Shown here one piece after another: positions 5,131 to 63,969 of a stretch of 64,000 nucleotides of DNA. Within the stretch, counting starts at the first letter, position 1, and each line of letters opens with the position of its first letter. The DNA is from an uncultured Candidatus Saccharibacteria bacterium (GTDB lineage Bacteria > Patescibacteriota > Minisyncoccia > Phycocordibacterales > Phycocordibacteraceae): NCBI GenBank assembly GCA_964349555.1, contig CAYGGK010000001.1, positions 49,486 to 113,485 on the forward strand. Reading direction: 5' to 3'. Position numbers and translations under genes: made by a program. A model generated the notes under the pieces. It made no database searches and was not told the origin of the DNA. It saw nothing but the letters and a program-made list of their open reading frames with translations.

Positions 5131-7617
5131 ATGGCGCGTGAGAAAGCAGATATAAAAGATGGAGAGGGTTCCCCCCTGGGGAACCCTATCGCCGCAAATG
5201 TCATCAATCAGCCGATCGTGTCGGAGATGCGGACGTCGTATGTGGATTACGCGATGTCGGTTATTACTGGCCGCGCTCTGCCGGACGTGCGCGACGGGCT
5301 GAAGCCCGTGCATCGCCGCATCCTCTACGCGATGAAAGAGCTGGGGCTTCTCCCGGGGGCGAAGTTTCGCAAGAGCGCTTTGGTGGTCGGCGACGTGCTC
5401 GGTAAGTACCATCCGCACGGCGACACCGCAGTTTACGACTCAATGACCAAGATGGCGCAAGAATTCTCACACCGGTACCCGCTCGTTCTTGGGCAGGGCA
5501 ACTTTGGCTCCATTGACGGCGACTCGCCGGCGGCGATGCGCTACACCGAAGCAAAGATTTCTCGTATCGCCGAGGCGCTTCTTGCCGATTTGGAAAAAGA
5601 CACCGTCGCGTGGAATCCCAACTACGACGCGACACGCGAAGAACCACGAGTGCTCCCCGCCGCGCTCCCAAACCTGCTTTTAAACGGCACGCTCGGCATC
5701 GCGGTCGGCATGGCGACTAATATTCCACCGCACAATCTCCGCGAAGTCGTTGCCGCAACCATCCATCTTATTGATAATCCGGAGGCAACGACCGATGATC
5801 TTTTACAATTCGTGAAGGGTCCCGACTTCCCGCTTGGCGGCGTCGCCTTCGGTCAGGCTGACATTAAGCACGCCTATGGGTCCGGCAAGGGCTCGCTTGT
5901 TGTGCGAGGCGAAGCGGAGATTGTTGACGATGGGAAAAAGGATACAAAAATTGTCATCACCTCTATTCCGTATCGCGTGAACAAGAGCGAGCTCATCAGC
6001 CGCATCGCTGACTTGGTACAAGAAAAAAAGATTGAAGGCATCCGCGACTTGCGCGACGAGTCAACCTCGGATATCCGCGTCGTGGTGGAGTTGAAGGGCA
6101 CCGCGCATCCGCAGGCCGTTTTGAATAATCTATACAAATACACCGAGCTGGAAAGCACGTTCCACTACAACATGCTCGCGCTCGTCGACGGCGTGCCGGA
6201 GATGCTTTCGCTTTCCGGTATGCTGGAGCACTTCGTGGAGCACCGCCGAGAGGTGGTGAAGCTCCGCACGGAGTACGACCTGCGTCAGGCGACTGCAAGG
6301 GAGCACATTCTTCTCGGTCTCTCCAAGGCGCTCGACCATATTGACGAGGTCATTGCGATTATTAAGAAGTCTGCCGACGTTTCTTCCGCGAGCCTCGCGC
6401 TTCAAAAGAAGTTCGGTTTCTCTGCGCTCCAGACTGCGGCGATTCTTGAAATGAAACTCTCCAAGCTCGCGGGGCTTGAGCGTAAGAAAATCGAGGACGA
6501 GTTATCCGAGGTGCAGGCGCTCATCAAGACGTTGAAAGAGATTCTCTCCTCAGCGAAAAATATTCTCGCCGTTGTCAAGAAAGAGCTTACGGAGCTCAGT
6601 GAAAAATACGGCGACGACCGTCGCACTAGAATCGTGAAAGGCGGCGTGCAGAATATTTCCGCAGAGGACCTCGTGCCGGACGAAGACTCGATGTTGGTGC
6701 TTACCCAAGGAGGATATGTGAAGAGGACGAACCCGAGCGAATACAAGATACAAAAACGCGGCGGTGTCGGCGTCGTGGATATTGCGACGAAAGAAGAAGA
6801 CATCGTGACGCACTTCCTCGTAACGAATGCGCACAGCGACCTGCTGTTCTTCACCAACTTTGGCAAAGTGTACCAGCTCAAGATGTACGAAATACCGGAA
6901 GGGAAGCGCGCGACTAAAGGCAAGAGCATTATGAACTTCCTACCGCTCTCCGCTGAGGAGTCGGTGACGAGCGTGCTTGCGGTGCCGAAAGGGGCGGCGC
7001 TCAACGCCTCATCTGTTATGTTCGTGACGGAAGCGGGCGCGGTGAAGAGGGTAGCGGCGAAGAGTTTCGCCGACGTGCGCCGTTCCGGTATCATCGCGAT
7101 TACTCTGAAGAAAGGCGACACGCTCGTCTCAGCCCATCTTGCAGGAGAGGGCGATACCGTGTCTATCGTCACCGCGAAGGGACAGTCAATCCGTTTTGAG
7201 GTTGATGATGTTCGCGAAATGGGTCGTACCGCCGGAGGTGTGCGCGGTATGAGTGTGAAGAAGGGAGATCGCGTGGTCTCGGCTGAAGTCATTTCTGCCA
7301 CGGCCTCCGATGCGTCTATCCTCGTTATCATGAGCAAGGGTTACGGTAAGCGCACAAAAATTTCAGAATATAAGGTACAAGGTCGCGGAGGCTCGGGTAT
7401 GAAAACAGCCAATATCACGCCGAAGACTGGCGAGATTATCGGCGCGAAGGTTGTTATCGGTAGCTTGGAAGGAGAAGAGCTTGTTGTCATTTCTAAAAAA
7501 GGACAGGTAATCCGTACTTCGGTCTCTGGGATTCCGCTTCTTTCTCGTGCCACTCAAGGCGTTCGCATTATGAAGCTCTATCCTGGCGACTCCATCGCCA
7601 GCATGGTGGCACTGTAG
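5131..7617 (+). CDS. gyrA: DNA gyrase subunit A
   Basis: [29 protein letters not shown], the active-site region, and C-terminal beta-pinwheel repeats. Confidence 0.95.
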
Positions 7618-7624
7618 AAAATTC

Positions 7625-7921
7625 ATGGAGCAGTGGCACATCTTGGATCGGAACGGTAACCCAGAGAAAGAAGAGGAGTTGCCGGAGCGACCAGCAGATT
7701 CGAATCCAGCAGAAGGACAGGCGTTTCGGCCTTGGTACAAACAAGAAGAACATTTACATATCGAAAGTAATGCCATCAAGGGTATTCATGCCCATGGGAT
7801 GTTACAAACAGTTCAAGAACGCTTGCATCACTACTTAAGCAAAGAACCTCAGATCCTTGCGGAATTTGGAGGGAGCGAAGATGTCCTTCTTCCTACTGTC
7901 GATAATTTCCTCGAACAATGA
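7625..7921 (+). CDS. Hypothetical acidic protein
   Basis: ORF only; 4-nt overlap (ATGA) with the next gene. Confidence 0.25.
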   Translation: MEQWHILDRNGNPEKEEELPERPADSNPAEGQAFRPWYKQEEHLHIESNAIKGIHAHGMLQTVQERLHHYLSKEPQILAEFGGSEDVLLPTVDNFLEQ

Positions 7922-8226
7922 AAAAGGTTGTTGTGACGGTGCCGGTGGGGCATGCAGACAAAGTTCGGCAGGCGATAGGCGAGGCGGGTGGCGGGAAAGT
8001 CGGGAAGTATTCTTTCTGTAGTTTCAGTGTGCGTGGCACTGGACGATTTTTACCGGGTGATGGAGCGAAGCCCGCGATTGGCAAGGTAGGAAAAATTGAA
8101 GAAGTTGAGGAAGAGCAAATTGAGATTAATTGCGACGATGTTCTCGTCGAGGATGTCGTAGGAGCCATCCGTCGCGTACACCCCTACGAAGAGCCATCAA
8201 TCGACATCTACCTACTCGAAAACTAA
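7918..8226 (+). CDS. Stand-alone PII-like domain protein resembling the insert domain of NIF3/YqfO (COG3323-like)
   Basis: Pattern VVV.VP..H...V..A...AGGGK.GKYS.CSF...GTG.F.P..GA.P.IG..G.IEEVEE..IE...HPYEEPSIDIY, as remembered for the YqfO insert domain. Confidence 0.45.
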   Translation: MKKVVVTVPVGHADKVRQAIGEAGGGKVGKYSFCSFSVRGTGRFLPGDGAKPAIGKVGKIEEVEEEQIEINCDDVLVEDVVGAIRRVHPYEEPSIDIYLLEN

Positions 8227-8251
8227 CGCAGTAAAATATCCTTATCCACAT

Positions 8252-8275
8252 CCGGTCGGTCAGAGATAAGAATAT
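8252..8275. repeat. Repeat R1a: CCGGTCGGTCAGAGATAAGAATAT upstream of PaaX-like gene 1; embedded in a short inverted repeat (CTTATC...GATAAG)
   Basis: Seen directly. A second copy lies at 8901-8924, downstream of the same gene. Confidence 0.7.
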
Positions 8276-8294
8276 TTGTTTTACGATATGAGAG

Positions 8295-8876
8295 ATGGGT
8301 AAGCTTGAGACAGCATCGCGTAAAAGAAGAAGGAAACAGAATATACAACATGCCGTACTTGCTGCCGTTGCGGTCGTTGGGCTGCTCGCATGGGCGGCAG
8401 TTGCTCCGAACACTCTGAAACTCCTACGGTATTTGCCTAAAGAAAAGTACAATCTCGGATATCGAGCTCGCACGGCTGCTGGACGCCTCGTTACTAAAGG
8501 CCAGGCAAAATGGGTTGAAAGAGGTGGTAAAAAATATTTGCGACTAACTCCGGCCGGTCACAAAGCGCTTGCGTTTGAACAAACAAAGGTTACTCTCAAA
8601 AATCAGAAAAAGAAGTGGGATTGTCGGTGGCGAATGGTTGTTTTTGATATTCCAGAACGGCGGCGGCGCATTAGGATTCGTTTGCGCACATATATGAGCG
8701 AAGTCGGTTTCGTACGACTGCAGGATAGCGTGTGGGTATATCCCTACGATTGCGAAGATTTTATCGCACTTCTTAAGGCAGAGCTAAAGATCGGTAAGGA
8801 CGTACTTTATGCGATTGCTGACACAATTGAACACGACCGAGACATTCGTAAGTACTTCCATCTGCCGGAGCAATAG
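8295..8876 (+). CDS. PaaX-like (Cas2-fold middle domain) putative transcriptional regulator, paralog 1
   Basis: N-terminal hydrophobic wHTH-like segment. The motif WDCRWRMVVFDIPERRRRIRIRLR...GFVRLQDSVWVYPY recalls the PaaX middle domain. It shares about 45% identity, judged by eye, with the ORF at 15663-16250. Confidence 0.55.
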   Translation: MGKLETASRKRRRKQNIQHAVLAAVAVVGLLAWAAVAPNTLKLLRYLPKEKYNLGYRARTAAGRLVTKGQAKWVERGGKKYLRLTPAGHKALAFEQTKVTLKNQKKKWDCRWRMVVFDIPERRRRIRIRLRTYMSEVGFVRLQDSVWVYPYDCEDFIALLKAELKIGKDVLYAIADTIEHDRDIRKYFHLPEQ

Positions 8877-8900
8877 ACCAGTCAACATTCTTATAATAAA

Positions 8901-8924
8901 CCGGTCGGTCAGAAATAAGAATGT
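8901..8924. repeat. Repeat R1b: CCGGTCGGTCAGAAATAAGAATGT downstream of PaaX-like gene 1; flanked by the inverted repeat CATTCTTAT...ATAAGAATG
   Basis: Seen directly; 22/24 identity to R1a. Confidence 0.7.
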
Positions 8925-8981
8925 ACAGAAGAAATAATAGTTTGTCGTTCGTTTCAGGTGTTTTCCTATTGAGGTGTTGAT

Positions 8982-9007
8982 TGCGCGGCCCGTCCACGGG
9001 CCGCGCA
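8982..9007 (+). terminator. GC-rich hairpin (11-bp stem TGCGCGGCCCG / CGGGCCGCGCA, 4-nt loop) followed by a T-rich run; candidate intrinsic terminator or regulatory hairpin
   Basis: Perfect inverted repeat seen directly. It lies between PaaX-like gene 1 and the methyltransferase start. Confidence 0.4.
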
Positions 9008-9022
9008 TGTTATTTTATAGGC

Positions 9023-9559
9023 ATGACGGCCCATTTCAGTTCTCCGAGAGAGAATGTGCTACACCTTGGCTTGCGCGAGGGAATGAAGGTTGGAGACCTT
9101 GGCGCTGGTAGCGGCCATTACGCGCGCGCGGCCGCCGCCATCGTGGGGCACGGCGGTAAGGTCTACGCAATTGATGTGCAAGAGGACGTCCTTAAGCACC
9201 TCAAACTCAACACGCACGACCACCACAAAAGCATCATTGACGTGCTCTGGGGCAACATTGAGAAGCCTGGCGGGACGCATCTGCGCGACGCATCGTTAGA
9301 TGCCGTTATCCTCGCTAACACACTCTTCCAGGTTGAGAATCGTGACGGGTTACTTGCAGAGATCAAACGCGTTCTGAAGCAGGGGGGAAAGTTTATGCTT
9401 ATCGATTGGGCGGGTAGCTATGGGGGTATGGGCCCCACACCCGACCAAATCGTGCCTGAACACGAAGCCGAAGCGCTTTTCATCAACGGCGGTTTCCACA
9501 AGGTGAAGTCATTTCGCGCCGGGCCGCACCATTACGGCATTATCTTTACCGCACCATGA
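9023..9559 (+). CDS. Class I SAM-dependent methyltransferase (Methyltransf_11/25-like)
   Basis: VGDLGAGSG (motif I), VYAIDV (motif II), LDAVILANTL, GGKFMLIDW. The start was trimmed to the ATG at 9023. Confidence 0.65.
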   Translation: MTAHFSSPRENVLHLGLREGMKVGDLGAGSGHYARAAAAIVGHGGKVYAIDVQEDVLKHLKLNTHDHHKSIIDVLWGNIEKPGGTHLRDASLDAVILANTLFQVENRDGLLAEIKRVLKQGGKFMLIDWAGSYGGMGPTPDQIVPEHEAEALFINGGFHKVKSFRAGPHHYGIIFTAP

Positions 9560-10854
9560 AAATCTCTCTCTTCCAGGGAATCTTAATTGGCGTATTTGGT
9601 CTCGGCGCGGTTATCGGCCTTTTTGTTTTCGCGACGTATACGAGTACGGGGGACGGTAACGATACGGGTCCGGTTGTCGTGTGGGGCGTTCTGCCAGAGA
9701 CGGAGATGCAGACATTTCTCGTTACCATGATGGAGCGCGACACGACGTTTAAAAACGTATCGTATATACAAAAGGATCGCGGTTCTCTGGCCAATGATCT
9801 CTCCACGGCAATAGCGACCAATAGCGCGCCAGACCTTATTCTCGCCTCACAGGAAGAGCTTCATGCACTCGCAAAATTCATCGTACCGATATCTTTTGAT
9901 ACAGTATCTCCAAAATCGTTTACACAAACATTCATTGACGGGGCCGGGATTTTTACGTCTCCGAATGGTTATTACGGAATACCGTTCCTTACTGATCCGC
10001 TCGTGCTTTTTTCAAATAAATCCATCCTCGCGAGTAACGGCGTCGCGAAGCCCCCGGCAACTTGGGAAGCCTTGAGCGGCCTCGTGCCGACTATCACGGT
10101 GCTCACACCGACGCGGCAGATTGCGCGCGGTCTCATCGCGCTCGGCGCATACCAGAACGTCAATAATGCGCGCGGGATACTCTCGTCGCTCTTCCTCCAG
10201 ACGGGCGTGCCGATCTCTTCATATTCAGCGACGGGCGTGCTCGGCGCAAATCTCGGTACTCAATCGCGAAGCGGCGTGCCGCCCGGGCCCTCCGTGGTCA
10301 GCTTCTACACGCAATTCGCCGATCCGGCAAAAAGCTCGTATACATGGAATACTTCGTTGCCGAACTCCAGGGACCTGTTCCTTGCCGGCGACCTCGCGCT
10401 TTATCTCGGGTACGTGTCCGAGGCGCGCGCTCTCCGCTTAGCGAATCCAAACCTGAACTTTAGCGTTGGCGCGCTCCCGCAGCCGGCAACCGCGCAGGTG
10501 AAGAGTGCGTACGGTCGCATCTATTCGTTCATGATTCCACGCGGGGCGAAGAACGCTGCCGGGGCGTACAGAGTCGCCGTTCTCCTCTCTAACCAGACCG
10601 AGCAAGCCGTCGCCGCGGCCGCGACCGGTCTCGTGCCCGTCAACCTTGGCGCGCTTGGTACGGCGCCTGTTGACCCCGTTGCCGCCGTCGCGTACGCCGA
10701 GGCGCTCTACACGCGCGGATGGCTGTCCCCAGCCCCCTCAGAGGTAGATGCCGTTTTTTCAAGTATGATTGAAAATGTGACAAGCGGCCGACTCACTTTG
10801 GAAGGAGCGCTCGGCTCCGCCGAGCGCTCCTTAGGCGCCCTCCTTCAACAGTAA
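9556..10854 (+). CDS. Membrane-anchored extracellular solute-binding protein (SBP family 1-like); no adjacent permease or ATPase
   Basis: N-terminal TM, then VVVWG...APDLILAS...GIFTSPNGYYGIPFLTDPLVLFSNKSIL...PPATWEAL, which is typical of SBP_bac_1. Confidence 0.5.
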   Translation: MKISLFQGILIGVFGLGAVIGLFVFATYTSTGDGNDTGPVVVWGVLPETEMQTFLVTMMERDTTFKNVSYIQKDRGSLANDLSTAIATNSAPDLILASQEELHALAKFIVPISFDTVSPKSFTQTFIDGAGIFTSPNGYYGIPFLTDPLVLFSNKSILASNGVAKPPATWEALSGLVPTITVLTPTRQIARGLIALGAYQNVNNARGILSSLFLQTGVPISSYSATGVLGANLGTQSRSGVPPGPSVVSFYTQFADPAKSSYTWNTSLPNSRDLFLAGDLALYLGYVSEARALRLANPNLNFSVGALPQPATAQVKSAYGRIYSFMIPRGAKNAAGAYRVAVLLSNQTEQAVAAAATGLVPVNLGALGTAPVDPVAAVAYAEALYTRGWLSPAPSEVDAVFSSMIENVTSGRLTLEGALGSAERSLGALLQQ

Positions 10855-10856
10855 CC

Positions 10857-11348
10857 ATGCGCACCTCTTTCGTTGCAGCAATCATGTTCTTCGCGCTCGC
10901 GTCTTCGGCACTCGCACTTGGTCCATCAGGCGGCGGGACCGTCACCCCTCCCCCTCCAACTGTAGATCCAGTGCTCCAAGCAGAACAAGAGGCGGCGGCT
11001 AATTCGGGGTCGATCAATAATATCCCTACGCAAATCTCGCCAAGTGTAAATAATGTTCCGGGTGGCTCCAACGTCACCCTCGTCAATCCGTTAAGAGGCG
11101 GCGGGGACTTGATGACCTTCCTTCAAAACATCCTTGATTTCGTCATTGAAATCGGCACGGTCGTCGTCGTCCTCATGCTGGTGTATGTCGGCTACCTCTT
11201 TGTTGCCGCACAAGGGAACGAGACAAAAATAACCGAAGCGCGCAACGCGCTCCTCTGGACCGTCGTCGGCGCACTCATCCTCCTCGGCTCCAAAGCGATA
11301 GCCATCGGTATAGAGGCGACGGCGCAGGCGCTCTCGGTTGGCGGCTGA
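10857..11348 (+). CDS. Pilin-like two-TM peptide P1 (VirB2/TrbC-like topology), signal peptide
   Basis: Signal peptide, Pro/Gly-rich linker, then hydrophobic helix, charged loop (QGNETKITEARNALLW) and a second hydrophobic helix. Most divergent member of the array. Confidence 0.45.
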   Translation: MRTSFVAAIMFFALASSALALGPSGGGTVTPPPPTVDPVLQAEQEAAANSGSINNIPTQISPSVNNVPGGSNVTLVNPLRGGGDLMTFLQNILDFVIEIGTVVVVLMLVYVGYLFVAAQGNETKITEARNALLWTVVGALILLGSKAIAIGIEATAQALSVGG

Positions 11349-11625
11349 TATGGCCACGTCGTTTAAAGAATTTATCGGGGACAGCACGACTGGCGTCGTA
11401 GGCGCCATCAACACCGTCATTGTACCCGTCATATTCGCGCTCGCGCTCGCCGCCTTCGTCTGGGGCATCTACAAATACTTCATCTTGGGAGCAGCGAACG
11501 AGTCAGAAAAAGCAGAGGGCCGCACGTTCGCCCTGTGGGGCCTCATCGGCATAGTGCTCCTCTTCTCCGTCTGGGGATTTGTTAATTTGTTGCTATCCAC
11601 GCTCGGCCTCACGGCCACCGGCTGA
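11338..11625 (+). CDS. Pilin-like two-TM peptide P2
   Basis: Core VIVPVIFALALAAFVWGIYKYFILGAANESEKAEGRTFALWGLIGIVLLFSVWGFVNLL. No signal peptide. Confidence 0.55.
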   Translation: MAADMATSFKEFIGDSTTGVVGAINTVIVPVIFALALAAFVWGIYKYFILGAANESEKAEGRTFALWGLIGIVLLFSVWGFVNLLLSTLGLTATG

Positions 11626-11644
11626 TGTGTCATACTTACGCTAT

Positions 11645-12100
11645 ATGAAATCCATCACGCGTCTCGCTCTTATTCTCACTGCTTCTTTAGTGTGCGTCGC
11701 GCCGTCATTTGCGCTCGCGCAGACTCAAATTTATTCAGACTCATCCGGCAACTTCCAATACAACAGCCCTAGCTTCTCAATCGGTTTCGGGAGCGGTGGC
11801 ATGTTTATGTGCGGGGCGAGCAACATCTGCCGTGTTGCGTCCACCATCATCTACGTCATCAACAACGTGCTCGTGCCGCTCCTCTTCGCCGCCGCCTTCA
11901 TCACGTTTCTCTACGGCGTCGTCTCCAAGTACATCTTCTCTTATGGGGACGCCGAGAAGGTGAAGGAGGGTCACAAACTCATTCTCTGGGGTATTCTCGC
12001 CTTTGTCATTATGATATCGCTTTGGGGCCTCGTGAATGTCGTCGCGAACACCTTCGGCCTCTACGGCATCTCCGCGCCGCCCCTGCCGAGCTCATTCTGA
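11645..12100 (+). CDS. Pilin-like two-TM peptide P3, signal peptide
   Basis: Signal peptide (MKSITRLALILTASLVCVAPSFALA). Core INNVLVPLLFAAAFITFLYG...GDAEKVKEGHKLILWGILAFVIMISLWGLVNVV. Confidence 0.55.
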   Translation: MKSITRLALILTASLVCVAPSFALAQTQIYSDSSGNFQYNSPSFSIGFGSGGMFMCGASNICRVASTIIYVINNVLVPLLFAAAFITFLYGVVSKYIFSYGDAEKVKEGHKLILWGILAFVIMISLWGLVNVVANTFGLYGISAPPLPSSF

Positions 12101-12112
12101 TAGAACAGAAAC

Positions 12113-12610
12113 ATGAAAAAATACCTCACAGCCCTCGCCCTTGCTTTCTTTGTCTTTGCGCCTTTGGCGCTGGCACAGCCCGCAGAAACTACTGAGATAC
12201 CATTCACTGGCACTACTGACCTGCAACCGTTCGGAGAAACTACTACCGACAATGACAACGTACAGTTCGACGACCAAATCTATAACGGCCTAACACAAAC
12301 ACAGGGAGGTACCGGAGGTGGCATCAACATAGGAGTCATCAAGCCGTATGCGGACAGCATTATCGGCATCATCAACTTCATCTTCCTCCCGGTTATCATG
12401 GCGGTTGCCTTCATCGTCTTCATCTGGGGCATCTACAAATACTTTATCTTGGGTGCGTCGAACGAATCAGAAAAAGCAGAGGGTCGTAAGTTTGCGATGT
12501 GGGGCATCATCGGCTTCGCCATCATCATCTCTATCTGGGGCCTTGTGAATACCTTTACGGGCGCCCTAAATCTGCAGGGTGGGCGCGCCCCGAGGATTCC
12601 AACCCTCTAA
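12113..12610 (+). CDS. Pilin-like two-TM peptide P4, signal peptide
   Basis: Signal peptide, then the core FLPVIMAVAFIVFIWGIYKYFILGASNESEKAEGRKFAMWGIIGFAIIISIWGLVNTF, which is nearly identical to P2. Confidence 0.55.
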   Translation: MKKYLTALALAFFVFAPLALAQPAETTEIPFTGTTDLQPFGETTTDNDNVQFDDQIYNGLTQTQGGTGGGINIGVIKPYADSIIGIINFIFLPVIMAVAFIVFIWGIYKYFILGASNESEKAEGRKFAMWGIIGFAIIISIWGLVNTFTGALNLQGGRAPRIPTL

Positions 12611-12691
12611 ATAGGGGGCTATCCACACGCCGAGATAAGGTATATTGACCAAGCCGGTAAAGACGTTACTATTAAGAGCAGTTAATCACTT

Positions 12692-13075
12692 ATGTATACT
12701 ATGAAAAAAGCACTTGCCCTCGCTACCGGAACGCTCGTCGCGCTCGCCCTGCCGCTTGTCTCGTCGGCCCAAACGGTGCGGAACCTTTCGGATGCCGGTT
12801 CGCTCATTATCAACGTTATCAATAATGTGCTAGTCCCCGTGCTCTTCGCTGTTGCTTTCATCGTCTTCCTTTGGGGAGCGTTCAATACTTTCATTCTAGG
12901 TCAGGGCTCCGAAGATGTGAAAGAGAAAGGCAAGAGTCTCATGTTGTACGGCCTTATCGGCTTCTTCGTCATGGTCTCCATCTGGGGCTTGGTGAACATC
13001 CTCACTGGCACCGTGAGCTTCGGTAATACGACGGGGCCAAGCAATACGCCTTCATCAGGCGTTCAGGTCAGATAA
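12692..13075 (+). CDS. Pilin-like two-TM peptide P5, signal peptide
   Basis: Signal peptide. Core INNVLVPVLFAVAFIVFLWG...GQGSEDVKEKGKSLMLYGLIGFFVMVSIWGLVNIL. Confidence 0.55.
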   Translation: MYTMKKALALATGTLVALALPLVSSAQTVRNLSDAGSLIINVINNVLVPVLFAVAFIVFLWGAFNTFILGQGSEDVKEKGKSLMLYGLIGFFVMVSIWGLVNILTGTVSFGNTTGPSNTPSSGVQVR

Positions 13076-13348
13076 ATGCCGGTTCTCCACGAATTCCTCG
13101 GGAAGGTTGTCGTAGAAATCGTCAACCCGCTCATCCTCCTTTTGGCGGCTGTCGCCTTTGTCCTCTTTCTCTGGGGAGTGTTTGAATTCGTGGCTCACGC
13201 TGGAGACGAGACGAAACGCACAGAGGGCAAGAGAGCCATTATGTGGGGCCTTGTCGGCCTCGTCGTTATCTTCGGTGTGTACGGCATTCTCAATATTTTG
13301 ACGGATACGTTTAATCTGGAGCGGGTTAAAAAGATAAGCGGCTTATAA
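13076..13348 (+). CDS. Pilin-like two-TM peptide P6
   Basis: Core LILLLAAVAFVLFLWG...HAGDETKRTEGKRAIMWGLVGLVVIFGVYGILNIL. No signal peptide. Confidence 0.5.
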   Translation: MPVLHEFLGKVVVEIVNPLILLLAAVAFVLFLWGVFEFVAHAGDETKRTEGKRAIMWGLVGLVVIFGVYGILNILTDTFNLERVKKISGL

Positions 13349-13352
13349 ATAA

Positions 13353-13392
13353 AAAAGGCCGGCGGGTTCTACCGCGCGGCCTTTTGTTGGAC
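13353..13392. terminator. Bidirectional hairpin between convergent genes (AAAAAGGCCGGCGGG...CGCGCGGCCTTTTG)
   Basis: GC stem flanked by an A-run and a T-run, seen directly. Confidence 0.45.
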
Positions 13393-13406
13393 GAACCAAC
13401 AAGAGT

Positions 13407-14234
13407 TTAATTCATCGGAGCATAGTAGTAGGATACGATGTTTTGATTTTTCGTATCCTTACTCGTTACATATACTGCAGCAAGCGGGCCGTCAGTACAT
13501 GATTCCGAACACTCGCTTCTATCCTGATACACGTTATGTACACGGAAGTTGTTTCCAATGAACATTGCATGCATATAGGGCGGAACCGGAATGTTCTCTG
13601 ACCTTCCGCCCGCCGGAATGACCAACTTCGGCCATTCCGACTGAGGCGAGCTCGCGAGCGGGATTTCAGAGCGCGCAGCCTGCTCTGGTGGTTTTGGCGG
13701 TTCGTTGAACCACCCGATGAAGGGCAGAACGACGAAGAGCAAAGTCATCGCCGCGACGAGTACTCCTTGCAGGGGTCTTGCCCACGGTGCCTTAACCATC
13801 GTCTGAACGATTGAGAGAGCCCCGGCCGAACCGCCGAGGATCAAAACAATCCAAAGCCAATGGTCCTTCACACACTCCCACACCGTCCCCAGCGATGGTG
13901 ACGGTGTTTTCAATAAAGACCCCACTTGTTGCCACGGCACCGACCACCAGACGATTAGTGCCACAACAGCCACGCCGACGACGGCGAAAATGGAGCTGAT
14001 AAGGTTGCCAGTATCACTTCCGGTACCACTTTCCGCACGAGCAGGAGTCTTGCCAGTTTCGGCGGAGGGAACCGGTCCTTTCTTTTGGTGTCCGATCTTC
14101 TGGTCGAGCCGGCTTTGTGCCGCAGCCCTCTTTTTTAAATGAGGCTTGTTAACTCGGTACAAGATGAATCCGAGCACAACTAATGACACAATAGCGACAA
14201 GTGCCGCCAGAAACCATATCCACATCATGCTCAT
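13407..14234 (-). CDS. Multi-TM membrane protein, Cys-containing C-terminal domain; possible NfeD-like partner of the SPFH protein
   Basis: Four to five hydrophobic helices. 4-nt overlap with the upstream SPFH gene. No motif recognised. Confidence 0.35.
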   Translation of the reverse strand: MSMMWIWFLAALVAIVSLVVLGFILYRVNKPHLKKRAAAQSRLDQKIGHQKKGPVPSAETGKTPARAESGTGSDTGNLISSIFAVVGVAVVALIVWWSVPWQQVGSLLKTPSPSLGTVWECVKDHWLWIVLILGGSAGALSIVQTMVKAPWARPLQGVLVAAMTLLFVVLPFIGWFNEPPKPPEQAARSEIPLASSPQSEWPKLVIPAGGRSENIPVPPYMHAMFIGNNFRVHNVYQDRSECSESCTDGPLAAVYVTSKDTKNQNIVSYYYAPMN

Positions 14235-15484
14235 TTTTCACCTCCTTTTCCAGCCAACGGAACGAACGGATTGTTCGCCCAGATGACTGTGTTGCCGGCA
14301 CCCTTTGAGGATTCCCGCATCGCATCGAGTTGTGCGAGTAGCATTCCCTCGGCGCCATGGTCTTTAATGACATCGAGCCGCACACGGAGAGCCTCCGCTT
14401 CTTTTTCGCCAATCATCCCGATGACATCTGCTTTCGCTTGGCCAGTTTTGAGTGTTGACCGAGCCTCTTGTTCGGCGGTATACACTGCCGCCGCGGCTTT
14501 TTGGGCTTCCGTTTTTGCGTCTCCGGAGAGTTCGACAGTTTGCAGATCGGCCGTGCGTATCTCTACGCCGTACCTTCCACGCAACCCCCTTGGCAGAGGG
14601 GCGTCGTCTTTCTCGTCGGCTAACAGGTCACTAAGGTCGATAATGGGTTTTGAGAACTCCTCAGACCATTGGCTCGATATACTCTTCATATCTCCATCTT
14701 TTTTGATGGAGATAAGATCATCGTATCCCTTACTTCCGACGAAGTTCCGCACTTGGCGGTTGATCGCGGCAGTGATACGCCGAATCCAGTCCTCACCGCT
14801 GAACAACGCGCGATACGGGTTGCGTATAGCGACTGTCACGAGCGTGAGCTCATCAGTTGGGAGACGATCATTTGTCTCCGCGCCGTCGGTCACGATCGCA
14901 TAGGTGAAGTCGGCGACATAGATGAAGTCAGTTACTTCGGCGCGCGGAAGGACTTTTTCTTTCCCTTCCTCACTTTCCGTGTACGTCTCGTTCCACTCGA
15001 ATTGGTAGACATACACGCTATTTGCCCACGGCCATCCGACCCAGTAGAGGCCGAGTTTTTTGAGTAGCCACGAACGGTCGTCATAATAACTATCCTCCGT
15101 CTCCTCAAAACCATTTGCGTTGTCTTTGCCGTGATAGAGAACCTCCCAGCTTGGGGAATCACTCTTGAAGCCTTTTTCCCCCTTCTTCGTCGGGTTGAGA
15201 TGGTATCCCTTAAAGGACATGATGAAGCGGTCGAACGACGAGCCGCGCATGATAGCCTTGGCGGTTCCTTCATTTACCTTCGTGAAGAGAATACTCTCTT
15301 CTGCGAGCCACGGGAAGCCGAACACCACGACAGCCGTAATAAGCGGTACGAGTACCGCCACTACGACAGCCGCAATAGGTGCGACAGCCACAATAAGCGG
15401 CCAGAATTCTGCTACGACGGCCGCAACGACGGCTAGAATGCCTAGCACAGCGAACAAACGTTTCATGATTATTCTCCCAGTCAA
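14231..15484 (-). CDS. SPFH/band-7 (stomatin/flotillin-like) membrane protein
   Basis: N-terminal TM helices, then a core ending in the Ala/Glu-rich coiled-coil GVEIRTADLQTVELSGDAKTEAQKAAAAVYTAEQEARS, typical of the SPFH C-terminus. Confidence 0.6.
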   Translation of the reverse strand: MTGRIIMKRLFAVLGILAVVAAVVAEFWPLIVAVAPIAAVVVAVLVPLITAVVVFGFPWLAEESILFTKVNEGTAKAIMRGSSFDRFIMSFKGYHLNPTKKGEKGFKSDSPSWEVLYHGKDNANGFEETEDSYYDDRSWLLKKLGLYWVGWPWANSVYVYQFEWNETYTESEEGKEKVLPRAEVTDFIYVADFTYAIVTDGAETNDRLPTDELTLVTVAIRNPYRALFSGEDWIRRITAAINRQVRNFVGSKGYDDLISIKKDGDMKSISSQWSEEFSKPIIDLSDLLADEKDDAPLPRGLRGRYGVEIRTADLQTVELSGDAKTEAQKAAAAVYTAEQEARSTLKTGQAKADVIGMIGEKEAEALRVRLDVIKDHGAEGMLLAQLDAMRESSKGAGNTVIWANNPFVPLAGKGGEK

Positions 15485-15617
15485 TGTTCATATCCAGCTC
15501 AGGATTGAGCCAGACTTCTGCCATACAGCATACACGAACCCAATCATTTGTCAAGTACCCCGCAACGGTTCAATTCTTTAGACAACACAACGTGTTGACC
15601 ACCCATCATCTACTCCG

Positions 15618-15669
15618 TGGGAAATCAACAATTCTTGCTATAGCAGAAGTTGTTGATAGTTGTTATTTA
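15618..15669. repeat. Repeat R2a: ~52-bp element containing the imperfect palindrome ATCAACAATTCTTGCTATAGCAGAAGTTGTTGAT
   Basis: Seen directly. Copies at 16268-16301 (same orientation) and 30199-30250 (reverse complement, 1 mismatch in the core). Confidence 0.8.
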
Positions 15670-16250
15670 AAAGGGAGGCCGAAATGTTTGCGTATCCACA
15701 CATCATTCTCTATTTCTTCCACAACCGCATAGAGCACGTCCTTGCCGATATGCAGGTCTGCTTTAAGGAGGGCAACAAATTCTTCACAGTTGTACGGATA
15801 AATCCACGCGCTGTCCTGTACACGGAGAAAACCGACCTCTTGTACGTGATGCCGTAATATTTCACGAGTCTTTTTCCGTTTTTCTGGAACGTCAAACAGT
15901 ATCAAGCGGTAACGCCGATCCCACTTGCGCGGTTTGTGCGCGAGAAGAGAGAGCCTCTGTTGTTCCATGGCTAAAGACTCTTCACCACGTCTTGTAAGGC
16001 GCACACAACGTTTCCCGTCATGTTCGACGAACTCAATCTCGCCCTTCATTTTCAATCGCGCGAGAATGCCTCTGGTCTGATACTTAAGTTTGGCAAGAAC
16101 GCCGCTCTTCCCAAGCATCTGAAACATGTTAGGTGCAATGGCCGCAACAGCGATAACTCCGGCTACACCTATCGTCATAAGCATCGCGCTGCGTACATTG
16201 CGGCGCCTACTCTTCTGCGCGGCACTCGCTTCAAGAGATTTCATGTACAC
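15663..16250 (-). CDS. PaaX-like (Cas2-fold middle domain) putative transcriptional regulator, paralog 2
   Basis: WDRRYRLILFDVPEKRKKTREILRHHVQEVGFLRVQDSAWIYPYNCEEFVALLKADLHIGKDVLYA aligns residue-for-residue with the ORF at 8295-8876. Confidence 0.55.
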   Translation of the reverse strand: MYMKSLEASAAQKSRRRNVRSAMLMTIGVAGVIAVAAIAPNMFQMLGKSGVLAKLKYQTRGILARLKMKGEIEFVEHDGKRCVRLTRRGEESLAMEQQRLSLLAHKPRKWDRRYRLILFDVPEKRKKTREILRHHVQEVGFLRVQDSAWIYPYNCEEFVALLKADLHIGKDVLYAVVEEIENDVWIRKHFGLPFK

Positions 16251-16267
16251 ACCCTACACCACCCATA

Positions 16268-16301
16268 ATCAACAATTCTTGCTATAGCAGAAGTTGTTGA
16301 T
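16268..16301. repeat. Repeat R2b (core palindrome copy) upstream of PaaX-like gene 2
   Basis: Identical 34-bp core to R2a. Confidence 0.8.
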
Positions 16302-16346
16302 ATCCGATTGGGCTACTCGCCTGGATTATTCGCCGCGTTATGTTTG

Positions 16347-16429
16347 TGCTGGGGAGAGGACTCGAACCTCCAATGGGTTGCCCCGCTAGCTCCTAAGGCT
16401 AGTGCGTCTACCAATTTCGCCACCCCAGC
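16347..16429 (-). tRNA. tRNA-Leu (anticodon TAG)
   Basis: Hand-folded cloverleaf: acceptor GCTGGGG/CCCCAGC, anticodon stem CTAGC/GCTAG, loop CTTAGGA, long variable arm, T-loop TTCGAGT. Confidence 0.8.
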
Positions 16430-16577
16430 CGGCTTCCATTGCCATACGCGATGGAGGACGACTTCCAAAGCATACTATGTTCTGTTATATTTTTCCTAAC
16501 GCGCCTGTATGATTACATACGAGCGTTCGTTCGGAGAGAGAATGAGCGAAGACGCTTATTCTCTCCTCCTCACCTCG

Positions 16578-16650
16578 CGCCTGTAGCTCAGTTGGTAGAG
16601 CAGCTCCCTCTTAAGGAGACGGTCCCTGGTTCAAGCCCAGGCAGGCGCAC
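16578..16650 (+). tRNA. tRNA-Lys (anticodon CTT)
   Basis: Acceptor GCGCCTG/CAGGCGC, D-loop AGTTGGTA, anticodon loop CTCTTAA, T-arm CCTGG TTCAAGC CCAGG. Confidence 0.8.
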
Positions 16651-16740
16651 AAACGAGCAAAGCGAAGTTTGTGCGAGCCGGAGCGCGACGGCGCGAGGCG
16701 GGGTCGCGGGCGTTTTCAGCAGAAAACGACCTGTGACCAC

Positions 16741-17574
16741 TTAGTGTGAGTCTGTATGTTGTGCGAAACTTTTCATGAGGTCGCGCGTGACGGGGCCGGG
16801 CGATCCCGACCCGATAGCCTTCGCGTCCACCGAGGCGACCGGTATGATGTCTTTAAACGACGAGGTGATAAAGACCTCATCCGCGCCGAGAAGCTCATCG
16901 ATAGAAACGGCCCGCTCTTCTGTCGGGTGGGACTTGCGCGCGATATCGAGCACGACCTTGCGCGTAATACCGAGCAGGATGTTTTCTTTCGGCGTGATAA
17001 CGCTACCGTTCTGTACGATGAAAACATTGCTGGTGGTGCATTCAAGCGCCATGCCTCCTGCAACATACAGACCCTCGATAGCGCCAGCAGCTTCCAACTT
17101 CTTTTGAAGAAGGACTGCCGTTATGTAATTCGTCGTTTTATACGCGGGGAAGGCCCGCTGGTGTTCGTGAGTGAGTAGCGGAGCACCATTGGCGTATAAC
17201 ACTTCCGGGAGCATCGTTGCCGGCTCGGCAGTGATGAAGAATGTTTCGCGACCAGCAACATGCTTGATGCCCTCTCTCGCTTCACCTCCTGTGAGGACCA
17301 TCCGGATATGCGCGCGGCGACCGGATGAATTTTCTTCAATGACCGCACGCATCATCTCAAGGGATTCTTTTTCAGAAAAGGGGAGAACGAGGCCCAGAGC
17401 ATCTGCAGATATTTTGAACCGTTCCCAGTGGTCGCTGAAATGAAACGGCTCGCCAGCGAATGCGGCAAGTCCCTCGTAGATACCGAAGCCGCGGAGCACC
17501 CCGAGGTCAAGCACGCCAACCCTCGCCTGGCTCAAGGGAACAATCGAGCCATTTAAGTTGCAGACGGGGTCCAT
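16741..17574 (-). CDS. Class IV aminotransferase (branched-chain amino acid / D-amino acid aminotransferase family)
   Basis: Fold-type IV PLP enzyme signatures (LHYGQGVFEGLKAYR-like, E.F..SS, TRK). Confidence 0.7.
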   Translation of the reverse strand: MDPVCNLNGSIVPLSQARVGVLDLGVLRGFGIYEGLAAFAGEPFHFSDHWERFKISADALGLVLPFSEKESLEMMRAVIEENSSGRRAHIRMVLTGGEAREGIKHVAGRETFFITAEPATMLPEVLYANGAPLLTHEHQRAFPAYKTTNYITAVLLQKKLEAAGAIEGLYVAGGMALECTTSNVFIVQNGSVITPKENILLGITRKVVLDIARKSHPTEERAVSIDELLGADEVFITSSFKDIIPVASVDAKAIGSGSPGPVTRDLMKSFAQHTDSH

Positions 17575-25743: not shown

Positions 25744-26634
25744 TTAAGACACTGTGTGTCCTAGCTTACGGAGCCAAGCCTTCTGGCGGCGGGCGTACTG
25801 CCAGAGTTTTGCTGAGAGGGTGGGGAAGAGAGATTCTTCGGCGCGCTCCTTTCGTAGAAATTCGCCGATGATTTTGTACTCAAGACCAAGCTCGTTCAGA
25901 CGCTCATCGCCCACCTCTTCGCGTACGCGGCGCACCTCGTCAATAAGCCCCCGCTCAAGCGCGCTTTTGAGACGTGTGTCTATCCGCGCGCGCAGTTCCT
26001 CGCGCGAGGGGTCAATTACAATCCATTCAATCAGGTATCTCAAAGATATGCCTATAGGTACGTCTTTGGGACACCTCAACGGAACAGTGCCGAGGAACTC
26101 GATGATTTCGAGCGCGCGGATGAGGCGTCGGCGGTTCTGCGGGTCAAGCTCGCTTGCGCGCCGCGGGTCTACTTCTCTAATTCGCGCGAATAGTTCCTCA
26201 GTGGGGAGTGCCTCAAGCTCCTCGCGTAGTGCAGGATTAGCATCAACTCCCGTCGGGAGGCCGCGGAGCAAGGCGTCAAAATAAAAGTGCGTCCCACCGA
26301 CAAGGATCGGGAGTTTCCCGCGAGACGATATTTCCTCAATCAGGCGCGTCGCATCGGCCACGAAATCTCCGGCGGAGTACTTCTCGCTCGCGCCACGGAT
26401 ATCAATAAGGTGATGCGGAACCCCCTGCATTTCTTCAAGCGTTATTTTCTCAGTGCCGATATCAAGCCCGCGATATACCTGTCGTGAGTCAACCGAGATC
26501 ACCTCGCTCATGAAGGGTTTCGTAAATCCTTCATTTGATGAAGGATTTACGAAACCCTTCAAAGCAATTTCAACGGCCCGAGAGGATTTACCCGAGGCGG
26601 TGGGGCCGGCTATGCAGAGGATTTGTGTTGCCAT
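25744..26634 (-). CDS. miaA: tRNA dimethylallyltransferase
   Basis: P-loop ILCIAGPTASGKSS and ISVDSRQVYRGLDIGTEK, HHLIDI. Carries a 16-aa in-frame insertion right after the P-loop. Confidence 0.85.
   Translation of the reverse strand: MATQILCIAGPTASGKSSRAVEIALKGFVNPSSNEGFTKPFMSEVISVDSRQVYRGLDIGTEKITLEEMQGVPHHLIDIRGASEKYSAGDFVADATRLIEEISSRGKLPILVGGTHFYFDALLRGLPTGVDANPALREELEALPTEELFARIREVDPRRASELDPQNRRRLIRALEIIEFLGTVPLRCPKDVPIGISLRYLIEWIVIDPSREELRARIDTRLKSALERGLIDEVRRVREEVGDERLNELGLEYKIIGEFLRKERAEESLFPTLSAKLWQYARRQKAWLRKLGHTVS
26511..26561. repeat. Perfect palindrome (23-bp arms TGAAGGGTTTCGTAAATCCTTCA / TGAAGGATTTACGAAACCCTTCA, 5-nt spacer) inserted in-frame within miaA
   Basis: Seen directly; it encodes the extra GFVNPSSNEGFTKPF segment. 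Confidence 0.85.
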
Positions 26635-30110: not shown

Positions 30111-30198
30111 AGGTAACCACTATACACCCAACAGTTTATTTTTGCTTTTTAATGAAAATCTCAGCGTAACTATGAGAATCGAATTGGCCTCCCTCTCA

Positions 30199-30250
30199 AA
30201 TAAACACTATCAACAACTTTTGCTATAGCAAGAATTGTTGATTTCCCAGG
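30199..30250. repeat. Repeat R2c: reverse-complement copy of the R2 palindromic element in the topA-rel intergenic region
   Basis: The core ATCAACAACTTTTGCTATAGCAAGAATTGTTGAT is the reverse complement of the R2a core with 1 mismatch; the flanking ~10 bp on each side also match R2a. Confidence 0.8.
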
Positions 30251-30295
30251 AGATAGATGGAGATGAGTGACCAACACAGACGCGGAGGCAGTAAG

Positions 30296-63289: not shown

Positions 63290-63969
63290 GAAATCACGCG
63301 TTTGTAGTAGAGGCGGAAGCAGAGGAGGGGATACGAGCGGCCGAAGCGTGGGCCGAAAAAGAGTTGAAAATTAAGATACAGGGGAACCCGGACGTCGTCG
63401 TTTTGCGCTACGGGCTCTTTTCGGTTGAGGACGCGCGGCGAGTAACGGAGCTCGCCGCGAGCGCACCTTTCGCAGGCGAACACAAAGTAGTGATTATTGC
63501 CGCAAGTCGCGCGTATCACGAAGCGCAGAATGCGCTTCTAAAACTCTTTGAGGAACCACCACAAGGAACCTATATGTTCCTTGTGCTTCCGACTCTGGGG
63601 TCTCTGCTTCCCACGTTAAGGTCGCGCATGCAAGTCTTGAGAAGTGCAGTCCCTCGACTGGACTCGGGACGACAAGAAATTCCAGAAGTTGCAAAGCAAT
63701 TTCTTGCCGCGAGTAAGGAGAAGCGGAGCGCGATTATTAAAAAATTGACCAGCGGGAAGGACGAAGAAGAGAAGAGAGAGAATCGCGAGGAGGCGATAGC
63801 TATCGTAAACGGCATCGAGCAAGTGGCTTACCGAAGTCTGACTTCGGCAGGAAATACGGCACTCTTGTCGGATATCGCAACTCTGCGCGGGTACCTCTAC
63901 GACCGTAGCGCACCGGTGCGTATGATTATGGAGCACCTCTCACTAGTGATTCCTCGGAATTTGCTATAA
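63286..63969 (+). CDS. holB: DNA polymerase III delta-prime-like clamp-loader subunit
   Basis: ALLKLFEEPP and SRC-like TLRSRMQVL motifs. 4-nt overlap with mreB. Confidence 0.6.
   Translation: MRNHAFVVEAEAEEGIRAAEAWAEKELKIKIQGNPDVVVLRYGLFSVEDARRVTELAASAPFAGEHKVVIIAASRAYHEAQNALLKLFEEPPQGTYMFLVLPTLGSLLPTLRSRMQVLRSAVPRLDSGRQEIPEVAKQFLAASKEKRSAIIKKLTSGKDEEEKRENREEAIAIVNGIEQVAYRSLTSAGNTALLSDIATLRGYLYDRSAPVRMIMEHLSLVIPRNLL

Follow-up and report, generated by a model that had tools for sequence, protein, structure and literature searches.

A family of small PaaX/Cas2-like regulator genes in Paceibacteria bracketed by paired palindromes

Patescibacteria have tiny genomes with few recognisable regulators, and gene control for their host-dependent lifestyle is largely unknown. 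We analysed a 64-kb stretch (the window) of contig CAYGGK010000001.1 from an uncultured Candidatus Saccharibacteria bacterium, which encodes two paralogous regulators, R1 and R2, each flanked on both sides by a palindrome of its own. Comparison with relatives shows that these repeats are a property of each regulator gene, family-wide in Paceibacteria, and we lean, with some caution, towards reading each unit of one gene and two palindromes as a self-contained autoregulatory repressor cassette with two cognate operators. An earlier interpretation of the window (the sequence-only reading) had instead treated R1 and R2 as the two ends of a self-contained islet of about 8 kb, from 8252 to 16301. 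This 8-kb block is an ordinary conserved chromosomal cluster that holds two regulator units, and not an island.

Paired palindromes at the regulator genes

The two paralogous regulators placed by the sequence-only reading at 8295-8876 (plus strand) and 15663-16250 (minus strand) are both present and share 46% identity. The 22-mer that it had seen on either side of R1 occurs exactly twice in the 64 kb (8252 and 8901; 0 expected) and sits within a longer, imperfect palindrome of 40-44 nt (8234-8277 and 8885-8924, plus strand). The upstream copy, AAATATCCTTATC-CACAT-CCGGTCGG-TCAGA-GATAAGAATATTT (8234..8277), is kept in 25 R1 orthologs and would form an operator over the -35/spacer region of the R1 promoter. 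It is followed by the R1 gene (8295..8876, 193 aa) and, 8 nt past the stop codon, by the downstream copy (8885..8924), a putative second (auxiliary) operator. The R2 gene (15663..16244, minus strand; 193 aa) lies in an open reading frame (ORF) that extends to 16250, with the ATG at 16244 as the likelier start. Its palindrome, ATCAACAA-N4-TGCTATAGCA-N4-TTGTTGAT, is found in identical copies 5 nt past the stop codon (15624..15657) and upstream of the gene (16268..16301), where it ends 23 nt ahead of the ATG. These two copies are as the sequence-only reading had described them; a third copy with one mismatch, at 30209-30242 and thus far outside the 8-kb block, had not been part of its account.

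The arms of these sites differ between paralogs. CTTATC...GATAAG arms surround CGGTCG in the R1 site, ATCAACAA...TTGTTGAT arms surround GCTATAGC in the R2 site, and CAGCACAATAATTAC...GTAATTATTGTGCTG arms surround the same GCTATAGC in the site of R3, a third paralog that lies about 100 kb away on the same contig. With different arms, R1, R2 and R3 should not cross-talk.

In order to extend this comparison to the family, 80 genomic loci encoding R1 relatives were fetched (labelled L followed by a number), and the proteins of the window were mapped onto them; in a family survey, the 150-nt flanks on the two sides of 83 non-redundant genes from about 75 genomes were then matched against each other without gaps. 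The upstream/downstream match score was at least 14 in 52 of the 83 genes and at least 18 in 38 of them, whereas mismatched gene pairs scored at least 14 in 5 of 300 comparisons and at least 18 in none, and the maxima of shuffled sequences were 8-13. The shared element is a palindrome of 34-44 bp (up to 52 bp). Its outer arms, of about 8-12 bp, are variable; inside them come short spacers and a conserved core, which reads CG[AG][TC]CG (CGRYCG) or GCTATAGC/CCTATAGG/CCATGG. Counted from the start codon, the first position of the upstream copy falls between -36 and -68, and that of the downstream copy between +579 and +663; the median distance is 18 nt from the upstream copy to the start codon and 8 nt from the stop codon to the downstream copy. 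The two copies are 615-724 bp apart from centre to centre (median 649), and the whole unit of gene and two palindromes measures about 0.75-0.9 kb. Symmetry scores of upstream and downstream copies were not significantly different across the family (Wilcoxon p 0.24); in the alignment of R1 orthologs the downstream copy is mostly the more symmetric of the two, with spacers complementary to each other. Palindrome copies beyond the flanking pair were present within 10 kb on either side at 3 of 43 loci. One R2-type gene (L035) has four copies, two per side (9778-9817, 9915-9958, 10612-10650 and 10841-10884). We found no description of a palindrome-bracketed PaaX/Cas2-like regulator in the searchable literature on PaaX/Cas2-like proteins and Patescibacteria.

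The position of the upstream copy is best understood from the sequence that follows it. Alignment of 25 R1 orthologs shows a TAnnnT hexamer 4-5 nt after the upstream copy, ending 7-9 nt before the ATG, and no -10-like element after the downstream copy. In the window this hexamer is TACGAT (8282..8287, plus strand), 7 nt ahead of the R1 ATG; at R2, a -10-like TAGGGT (16256-16251, minus strand) is situated between the upstream palindrome and the ATG. A TAnnnT ending 4-12 nt before the start codon is present in 66 of the 83 family genes, compared with 22% of shuffled sequences. A conserved TAnnnT so near the ATG, and only after the upstream copy, is consistent with the -10 box of a leaderless or near-leaderless mRNA, and its position would have the upstream palindrome cover about -12 to -50 of the gene's own promoter. 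This geometry suggests a leaderless, self-repressed promoter under the upstream palindrome. E. coli PaaX offers a precedent of the same span and logic: it recognises TGATTC-N27-GAATCA, a site of 39 bp, and keeps its own Px promoter repressed by occluding it (PMC9493321).

The downstream copy keeps to the stop codon of the regulator whatever follows. The start of the next gene lies between 14 and more than 2000 nt away from it; the neighbour is convergent in about 25 of 80 cases, and the copy persists in that arrangement, strong repeat pairs included (for example at L086 and at L085, the R3 locus). In the window, a strong intrinsic terminator (8982..9017, plus strand; 11-bp GC stem and T run, RNA fold -31.5 kcal/mol, z -5.2) ends the R1 unit and separates its downstream palindrome from the next gene, and GC-rich hairpins are found downstream of the unit in several orthologs too. 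Both the attachment to the stop codon and the intervening terminator argue that the gene that follows does not use the downstream copy as its operator.

Variation among the R1 orthologs connects the half-sites to the protein. All four half-sites read TGTTATC in four genomes, and these four all encode Q57, while the other 20 have R at this position (Y in one; Fisher 9e-5). Similarly, xCTATC half-sites go with V61 (4/5 against 0/19; Fisher 5e-4); this residue is encoded in four genomes, all of them with such half-sites, and in none of the others. Residues 57 and 61 fall within the predicted recognition helix (49-67) of the R1 model, and the Q57 and V61 groups are internally no more similar than they are to other R1 orthologs. 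It is from this covariation, as direct support, that we infer recognition of the palindrome arms by the encoded protein. Family-wide mutual information between core type and protein columns (top columns 46, 48 and 49, near the turn of the helix-turn-helix) is confounded by phylogeny and is not relied on here.

A family of Cas2-like proteins with a predicted winged helix

R1, R2 and R3 match the Pfam family PaaX_M (PF20803) with E-values of 6e-20, 1.3e-15 and 1.4e-16, respectively, all over the 24-bit cut-off. The AlphaFold model of R1, built with a 48-sequence alignment, has a mean predicted local distance difference test score (pLDDT) of 75, with low confidence at residues 26-38, and displays three helices and a beta wing, a linker helix, and a beta-alpha-beta-beta-alpha-beta domain. 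A Foldseek search of the PDB with this model places E. coli PaaX first (8A39; E 1.7e-4 over 198 aligned columns), with Rv0674 and then Cas2 proteins as the next matches. These results bear out the assignment of both regulators as PaaX-like proteins with a Cas2 fold in the sequence-only reading, which had also named PaaX_C as a family to search; PaaX_M is matched by both regulators, while this C-terminal effector domain is not, and R1 stops at residue 193, directly after the Cas2-like domain. The Pfam N-terminal domain of PaaX gave no match for R1 or R2 at E<=0.1, though the model shows the order helix-helix-helix-wing, and the PaaX equivalog model TIGR02277 gave scores of 40.6 and 28.7 bits against a cut-off of 264.55 bits. 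R1 and R2, each of 193 aa, combine a predicted winged helix with a Cas2-like domain and correspond to PaaX without its C-terminal third.

PaaX, the phenylacetyl-CoA-responsive repressor of E. coli and Pseudomonas (8A39, TIGR02277), has an N-terminal winged helix, as modelled here for R1, and a Cas2-like middle domain. Its operator is long and palindromic, with outer half-sites that together cover about 39 bp, and it acts as a repressor on its own promoter (PMC9493321), as is predicted for the proteins described here. PaaX differs in its length of about 305-316 aa, which includes the PaaX_C effector domain that the 193-aa proteins lack. The present units have no paa genes nearby, an extra conserved central core in the palindrome and a second site directly past the stop codon. 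As far as seen, the family does not extend beyond Patescibacteria, and the present contig has several of its paralogs. No paa genes were present in any neighbourhood examined, and no integrase or transposase was called around the paralogs.

Many members of the family are named 'CRISPR-associated endonuclease Cas2' in GenBank, because R1-type proteins just pass the NCBI cas2 model over its first 40 residues; R1 scores 26.3 bits with NCBIfam cas2 (cut-off 24.5), with positions 3-41 of the 96 in the profile aligned, and 20.6 bits with Pfam CRISPR_Cas2, under the cut-off of 23.8. As in proteins of the Cas2/VapD type, there is a ferredoxin-like domain, to which the first ~40 residues of Cas2 profiles match, and an invariant Asp after its first strand. 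This residue, D118, lies at the end of strand 1 of the Cas2-like domain and is invariant in the family alignment; by its profile coordinates it would correspond to the catalytic Asp of Cas2. A sequence search of the Cas2-like half against the PDB returned no Cas2 match on which D118 and the catalytic Asp could be aligned. Cas2 is a stand-alone protein of about 90 aa, unlike the winged-helix fusion predicted here, for which no cas neighbours were called. Neither cas1 nor any other cas family is among the genes called in the window, around R1, R2 and R3, or around an R2 ortholog, and a repeat search of 7600-17000 detected no CRISPR array. The Cas2 annotation of the family is misleading, given the predicted fusion to a winged helix, the lack of cas neighbours and the presence of two single palindromes instead of a repeat-spacer array.

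The family is large, with 307 clusters at 50% identity at E<=1e-30 and 2422 at E<=1e-10, nearly all of about 190 aa, and its named sources are Patescibacteria without exception. A viral origin of the units was rejected, as no relatives were found among the viral contigs of IMG/VR. Membership in a defence system was rejected as well; PADLOC gave the regulators weak partial Cas2 matches only.

Conserved gene order and apparent traces of insertion

The order gyrA-(small ORFs)-R1-methyltransferase-solute-binding protein-six pilins recurs in at least 25 related Paceibacteria genomes with an R1 of 61-79% identity (61-87% across the R1 orthologs found at this chromosomal position), and more distant genomes still hold gyrA followed by the methyltransferase (MTase), solute-binding protein (SBP) and pilin genes. 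In two distant Paceibacteria, gyrA directly abuts the MTase gene with no regulator between them (L073, 427-3562; L058, 5285-8419), which suggests that gyrA, MTase, SBP and pilins ancestrally formed one operon and that the R1 unit was a later arrival in it. At the other end of the block, tRNA-Leu(TAG) (16346-16429, minus strand) is the first gene of a four-tRNA cluster, tRNA-Leu(TAG)/Lys(CTT)/Leu(TAA)/Cys(GCA), that closes the block and is followed by rbfA-infB in 9 of 9 relatives checked. It lies 44 nt from the R2 upstream palindrome, much as the sequence-only reading had it, and is a neighbour of R2 and not the boundary of an island. The only variable pieces of the block are R2, as a unit of 0.85 kb, and the SPFH-like pair beside it; in L007 the SPFH-like gene begins 35 nt from tRNA-Leu(TAG) with no regulator in between. 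Conversely, R2 orthologs elsewhere (about 74% identity) are located between unrelated housekeeping genes and not beside SPFH-like genes.

The islet reading falls on this conservation, from gyrA to infB in at least 25 relatives, and on the normal composition of the cargo. The sequence-only reading had itself proposed that gene order beside the orthologous tRNA-Leu be compared among relatives, and had named conserved gene order as evidence against its islet; the block is present and conserved there. Its observation that integrases and transposases are missing stands, as none of the genes called in the window belongs to such a family; integration at a tRNA hotspot does not, since the tRNA cluster is conserved, no integrase accompanies it and there is no tRNA-derived repeat. 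Specifically, a target duplication of the tRNA-Leu 3' end was looked for around R2, and no duplicate was detected. The repeats do not mark the edges of a module either, for they flank each regulator gene throughout the family and R2 lies outside the conserved block. The proposed comparison of composition gave G+C contents at third codon positions (GC3) of 0.43 for R1 and 0.51 for R2 against 0.58-0.74 for their neighbours; these two are the only genes of low GC3 within the block, whose cargo genes have the same GC3 as neighbouring housekeeping genes and whose composition is unremarkable. A small ORF at 7625-7921 has a similarly low GC3 (0.43). We conclude that the claim of an 8-kb regulator-bracketed islet should be dropped.

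The cargo itself was for the most part correctly read. Pfam matches confirm the MTase gene (9023-9559), the gene of a membrane-anchored SBP (SBP_bac_8/1; 9556-10854) and six VirB2-like pilin genes (10857-13348), all on the plus strand, which together make up a conserved cluster (9023..13348) outside the cassettes. The 'SPFH/band-7 pair' (13407..15466, minus strand; variably present in relatives) holds up less well. It consists of a 411-aa, weakly SPFH-like protein whose Band_7 match is sub-threshold (22 bits against a cut-off of 23.6) and a 275-aa membrane protein of no known family. The six pilins match the type IV secretion system (T4SS) family T4SS_pilin (PF18895) at E-values of 4.5e-7 to 3.8e-10, all over the cut-off, and their mutual identity is low. 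Tandem arrays of 2-11 VirB2-like pilin genes have been described in 383 assemblies of the candidate phyla radiation (CPR), and the six-gene set fits the definition of such an array, at least two tandem T4SS_pilin/TrbC matches (bioRxiv 10.1101/2025.01.22.634366). While it shares with CPR arrays the run of six consecutive PF18895 genes, it differs in being preceded by the conserved MTase and orphan SBP genes. No virB4, virB6 or other T4SS family was called in the window. The MTase also matches 'mad2' of the mads system in PADLOC (E 6e-19), probably a generic methyltransferase similarity.

Several observations bear on how the units came to their present sites. The third R2-type palindrome belongs to a relic of the 3' junction of an R2-like cassette (30186..30277, plus strand), a segment of 92 nt between topA and relA/spoT that is 86% identical to the R2 end over 93 columns (E 1.6e-22). 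It retains the last ~18 nt of the gene (..GLPLK*), the palindrome with its one mismatch and about 35 nt beyond, which correspond to 32 nt past the R2 palindrome. This copy occupies nucleotides 99-132 ahead of the relA start codon. Neither a PaaX-like gene nor a GCTATAGC core was present between topA and relA in any of about 28 relatives, and a role of this copy as a conserved relA/spoT operator was ruled out on these grounds and by the R2-like gene end that it carries. The topA-relA/spoT region (30111-30295 in the window; L089-L158) is variable in its own right, with 23-73 nt in many relatives and 200-2000 nt in others, where small genes are found, such as that of a recurring small membrane protein with a '..VVAWHRAELERLD..' motif and that of a ~140-aa '..GERYRRYLEPQL..LRIGQQLQFLKRAL' protein. 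At another locus (L040, ~1790-1925), an extra identical upstream palindrome with about 80 nt of upstream flank lies about 1.6 kb after the regulator start codon; this copy could be a further relic, or a promoter-operator module that was duplicated and now drives a different gene.

Four units are flanked by a duplicate of the 3' end of a neighbouring gene, up to its stop codon, located 15-100 nt outside the palindromes. Around R3, 51-62 nt of the tyrS 3' end are duplicated with 89-94% identity (5806-5867 and 6734-6795 of L085). A unit in a Kaiserbacteria metagenome-assembled genome (L031, 423-2949) interrupts the spc ribosomal-protein operon, which is otherwise universally conserved; it is encoded on the opposite strand, has rplE (L5) and rpsH (S8) as its neighbours and is accompanied by a 60-nt duplicate of the rplE 3' end (1580-1639 and 2398-2457). 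In L045 (9779-9836 and 10677-10734) and L033 (9825-9877 and 10704-10756) it is the 3' end of an NAD-epimerase gene, about 100 nt, that is duplicated. The orphan copies still read as intact C-termini and resemble diverged orthologous C-termini, and the duplicated segments share no terminal motif. These gene ends look like footprints of insertion, far longer than the target duplications of transposases; recombination with imported DNA would fit equally. Other family members are found at different places of the same tRNA cluster (L073 and L078), and no near-identical copies of a unit were found at different sites. Despite their conserved position, R1 orthologs have a GC3 below that of gyrA, MTase and SBP in 23 of 23 genomes (mean difference -0.17). 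We infer that R1 entered long ago between gyrA and the MTase-SBP-pilin operon and has become fixed there, and that R2 is a lineage-specific insertion beside tRNA-Leu(TAG); with R3 as the third unit of this genome, the relic, 14 kb from the block, would be a fourth that has decayed.

Further palindromes in the window stand apart from these units. By far the best of them is a perfect 51-nt palindrome, TGAAGGGTTTCGTAAATCCTTCATTTGATGAAGGATTTACGAAACCCTTCA, in the 5' part of the miaA (IPPT) gene (26511-26561), which is unrelated to the regulator sites and could be an insertion, an assembly artefact or a structured element. A 26-nt palindrome, CACAAGGAACCTATATGTTCCTTGTG (63560-63585), and a lone CCTATAGG core at position 26051 have a vague likeness to the family sites, and could be sites for a paralog encoded elsewhere.

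Autoregulation and its alternatives

According to the autoregulatory reading, a dimer of the encoded protein would bind both palindromes, as suggested by their position and symmetry, by the covariation with the recognition helix and by analogy to PaaX. With an upstream site that overlaps the -35/spacer region and a -10 element about 7 nt before the ATG, binding would shut off the gene's own leaderless transcript. The downstream site may then serve as a high-affinity accessory operator, which captures repressor locally or loops cooperatively with the first site, and perhaps as a roadblock across the unit. The proposed logic of a promoter operator and a better-matched second operator several hundred bp away is that of lambda CI at OL/OR, lac O1-O2 and gal OE-OI. 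In contrast to those looping repressors, the whole family keeps the second site in one place, about 8 nt past the stop codon, and the pair of sites travels with the gene to new chromosomal positions. The fixed position of R1 over deep divergence, with both palindromes kept, argues that the sites serve the cell or the unit's own regulation.

A number of observations weigh against this reading. About one third of the family is without a clear repeat pair in the ungapped test, and no good -35 element is evident. The downstream copies are often perfect over their full 38-52 nt, which is more symmetry than protein contacts usually need. The ~650-bp spacing of the two sites carries no signal of helical phasing (Rayleigh p 0.3-0.9), and looping is left without specific support. 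The covariation statistics ignore phylogeny and rest on two groups of four genomes. In addition, an ordinary regulator would be expected to have targets, and the visible sites are almost confined to the flanks of its own gene, a pattern that a selfish element also fits.

This last possibility is unlikely in our estimate, yet it is the alternative to be taken most seriously. In it the units would be selfish mobile elements, with palindromes for excision, insertion or copying, the winged-helix and Cas2-like protein as the enzyme or targeting factor behind their movement, and autoregulation as a secondary matter. The near-confinement of sites to unit flanks would be expected of such elements, and the variable occupancy of the R2 site, the relic at 30186-30277 and the several paralogs on the contig would record their movement, whereas the retention of R1 at one position down to about 61% protein identity, with both palindromes, points to a function at the level of the host. 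The duplicated gene ends around R3 and at L031, L045 and L033 count in its favour, but duplications of 50-100 nt match no known transposase and lie 15-100 nt outside the palindromes, and the pseudo-copies could equally stem from recombination with foreign DNA. The low GC3 of R1 in 23 of 23 genomes, the invariance of D118 and the score of R1 over the NCBIfam cas2 cut-off are also consistent with mobility; set against them are the lack of near-identical copies elsewhere and of IMG/VR relatives, and, to our knowledge, PaaX itself has no nuclease role. The closest parallels among known elements are the repetitive extragenic palindromes (REP) with their associated transposases (RAYT) and the insertion sequences (IS) of the IS200/IS605 group, in which one gene likewise lies between two family-specific palindromes and paralogs have different palindromes. 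The present proteins lack the HUH/Y1 transposase motifs of that group, and their palindromes are found in 2-3 copies in 64 kb and are not dispersed in large numbers. Compared more broadly with IS, miniature inverted-repeat transposable elements (MITE) and RAYT-REP, no transposase family was matched, and the footprints lie outside the palindromes as duplications of 50-100 nt of gene 3' ends. The more specific proposal that these are unrecognised small mobile elements of Patescibacteria, whose protein recognises its own palindromes and either promotes insertion of the ~0.8-kb unit or is needed for it, with 3' ends of host genes as targets and target duplications of 50-100 nt as the outcome, is more doubtful still.

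Control of a neighbouring operon from the downstream palindrome (MTase-SBP-pilins for R1, the SPFH-like pair for R2), with joint governance of a surface-structure module, is likewise an unlikely explanation. Both downstream palindromes of the window do precede co-directional genes, yet across the family this copy tracks the regulator stop codon and persists with convergent neighbours, and R2 orthologs elsewhere are not beside SPFH-like genes. It is possible for R1 only. R1 is always near the gyrA-MTase-SBP-pilin cluster, including in the distant L074 and L081, and a unit inserted between gyrA and the MTase gene, which abut in L073 and L058, could gate read-through into the pilin operon; a terminator ahead of the MTase gene and the absence of a -10-like element in 25 orthologs tell against this. 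Cas2 relatives include RNases, and the palindromes might act in RNA, as hairpins that terminate or stabilise the regulator's own mRNA or are bound within it. The downstream copy, between stop codon and terminator, is transcribed, and many downstream copies are perfect hairpins from end to end; RNA folds have z-scores of -2.7 to -3.3. Their energies, about -12 kcal/mol, are modest next to a separate GC-rich terminator, the spacers are asymmetric in many sites, and the sense strand of the R2 palindrome, as read from its sequence, contains C.A mismatches. The upstream copy precedes the -10 element and should not be transcribed, which together with the modest folds makes a purely RNA-level role improbable, and the arms covary with a DNA-recognition helix. 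By far the least credible explanation is integration of the whole 8-kb block as a genomic islet beside tRNA-Leu(TAG). The proximity of the tRNA and the regulators at both ends are what it would explain, in the face of conserved gene order and tRNA cluster, normal cargo GC3, and the lack of an integrase or tRNA-derived direct repeat.

Were the mobile-element reading true, a mobile element outside CRISPR would owe its specificity or its catalysis to a Cas2-fold protein; this would bear on the recruitment of Cas2 to CRISPR adaptation and would be much more novel than an autoregulated PaaX-like repressor. The footprints, one of them inside the spc operon, and the confinement of sites to their own flanks raise this question of selfish cassettes. 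In the autoregulatory reading that we prefer, Paceibacteria appear to have in this family a major set of proteins that bind DNA sequence-specifically, widely mis-annotated as 'Cas2', and as each gene carries its own putative binding site in duplicate, the cognate site could be read from the genome. The family would thus offer hundreds of natural protein-operator pairs for decoding the specificity of winged helices, and a handle on regulation in genetically intractable organisms.

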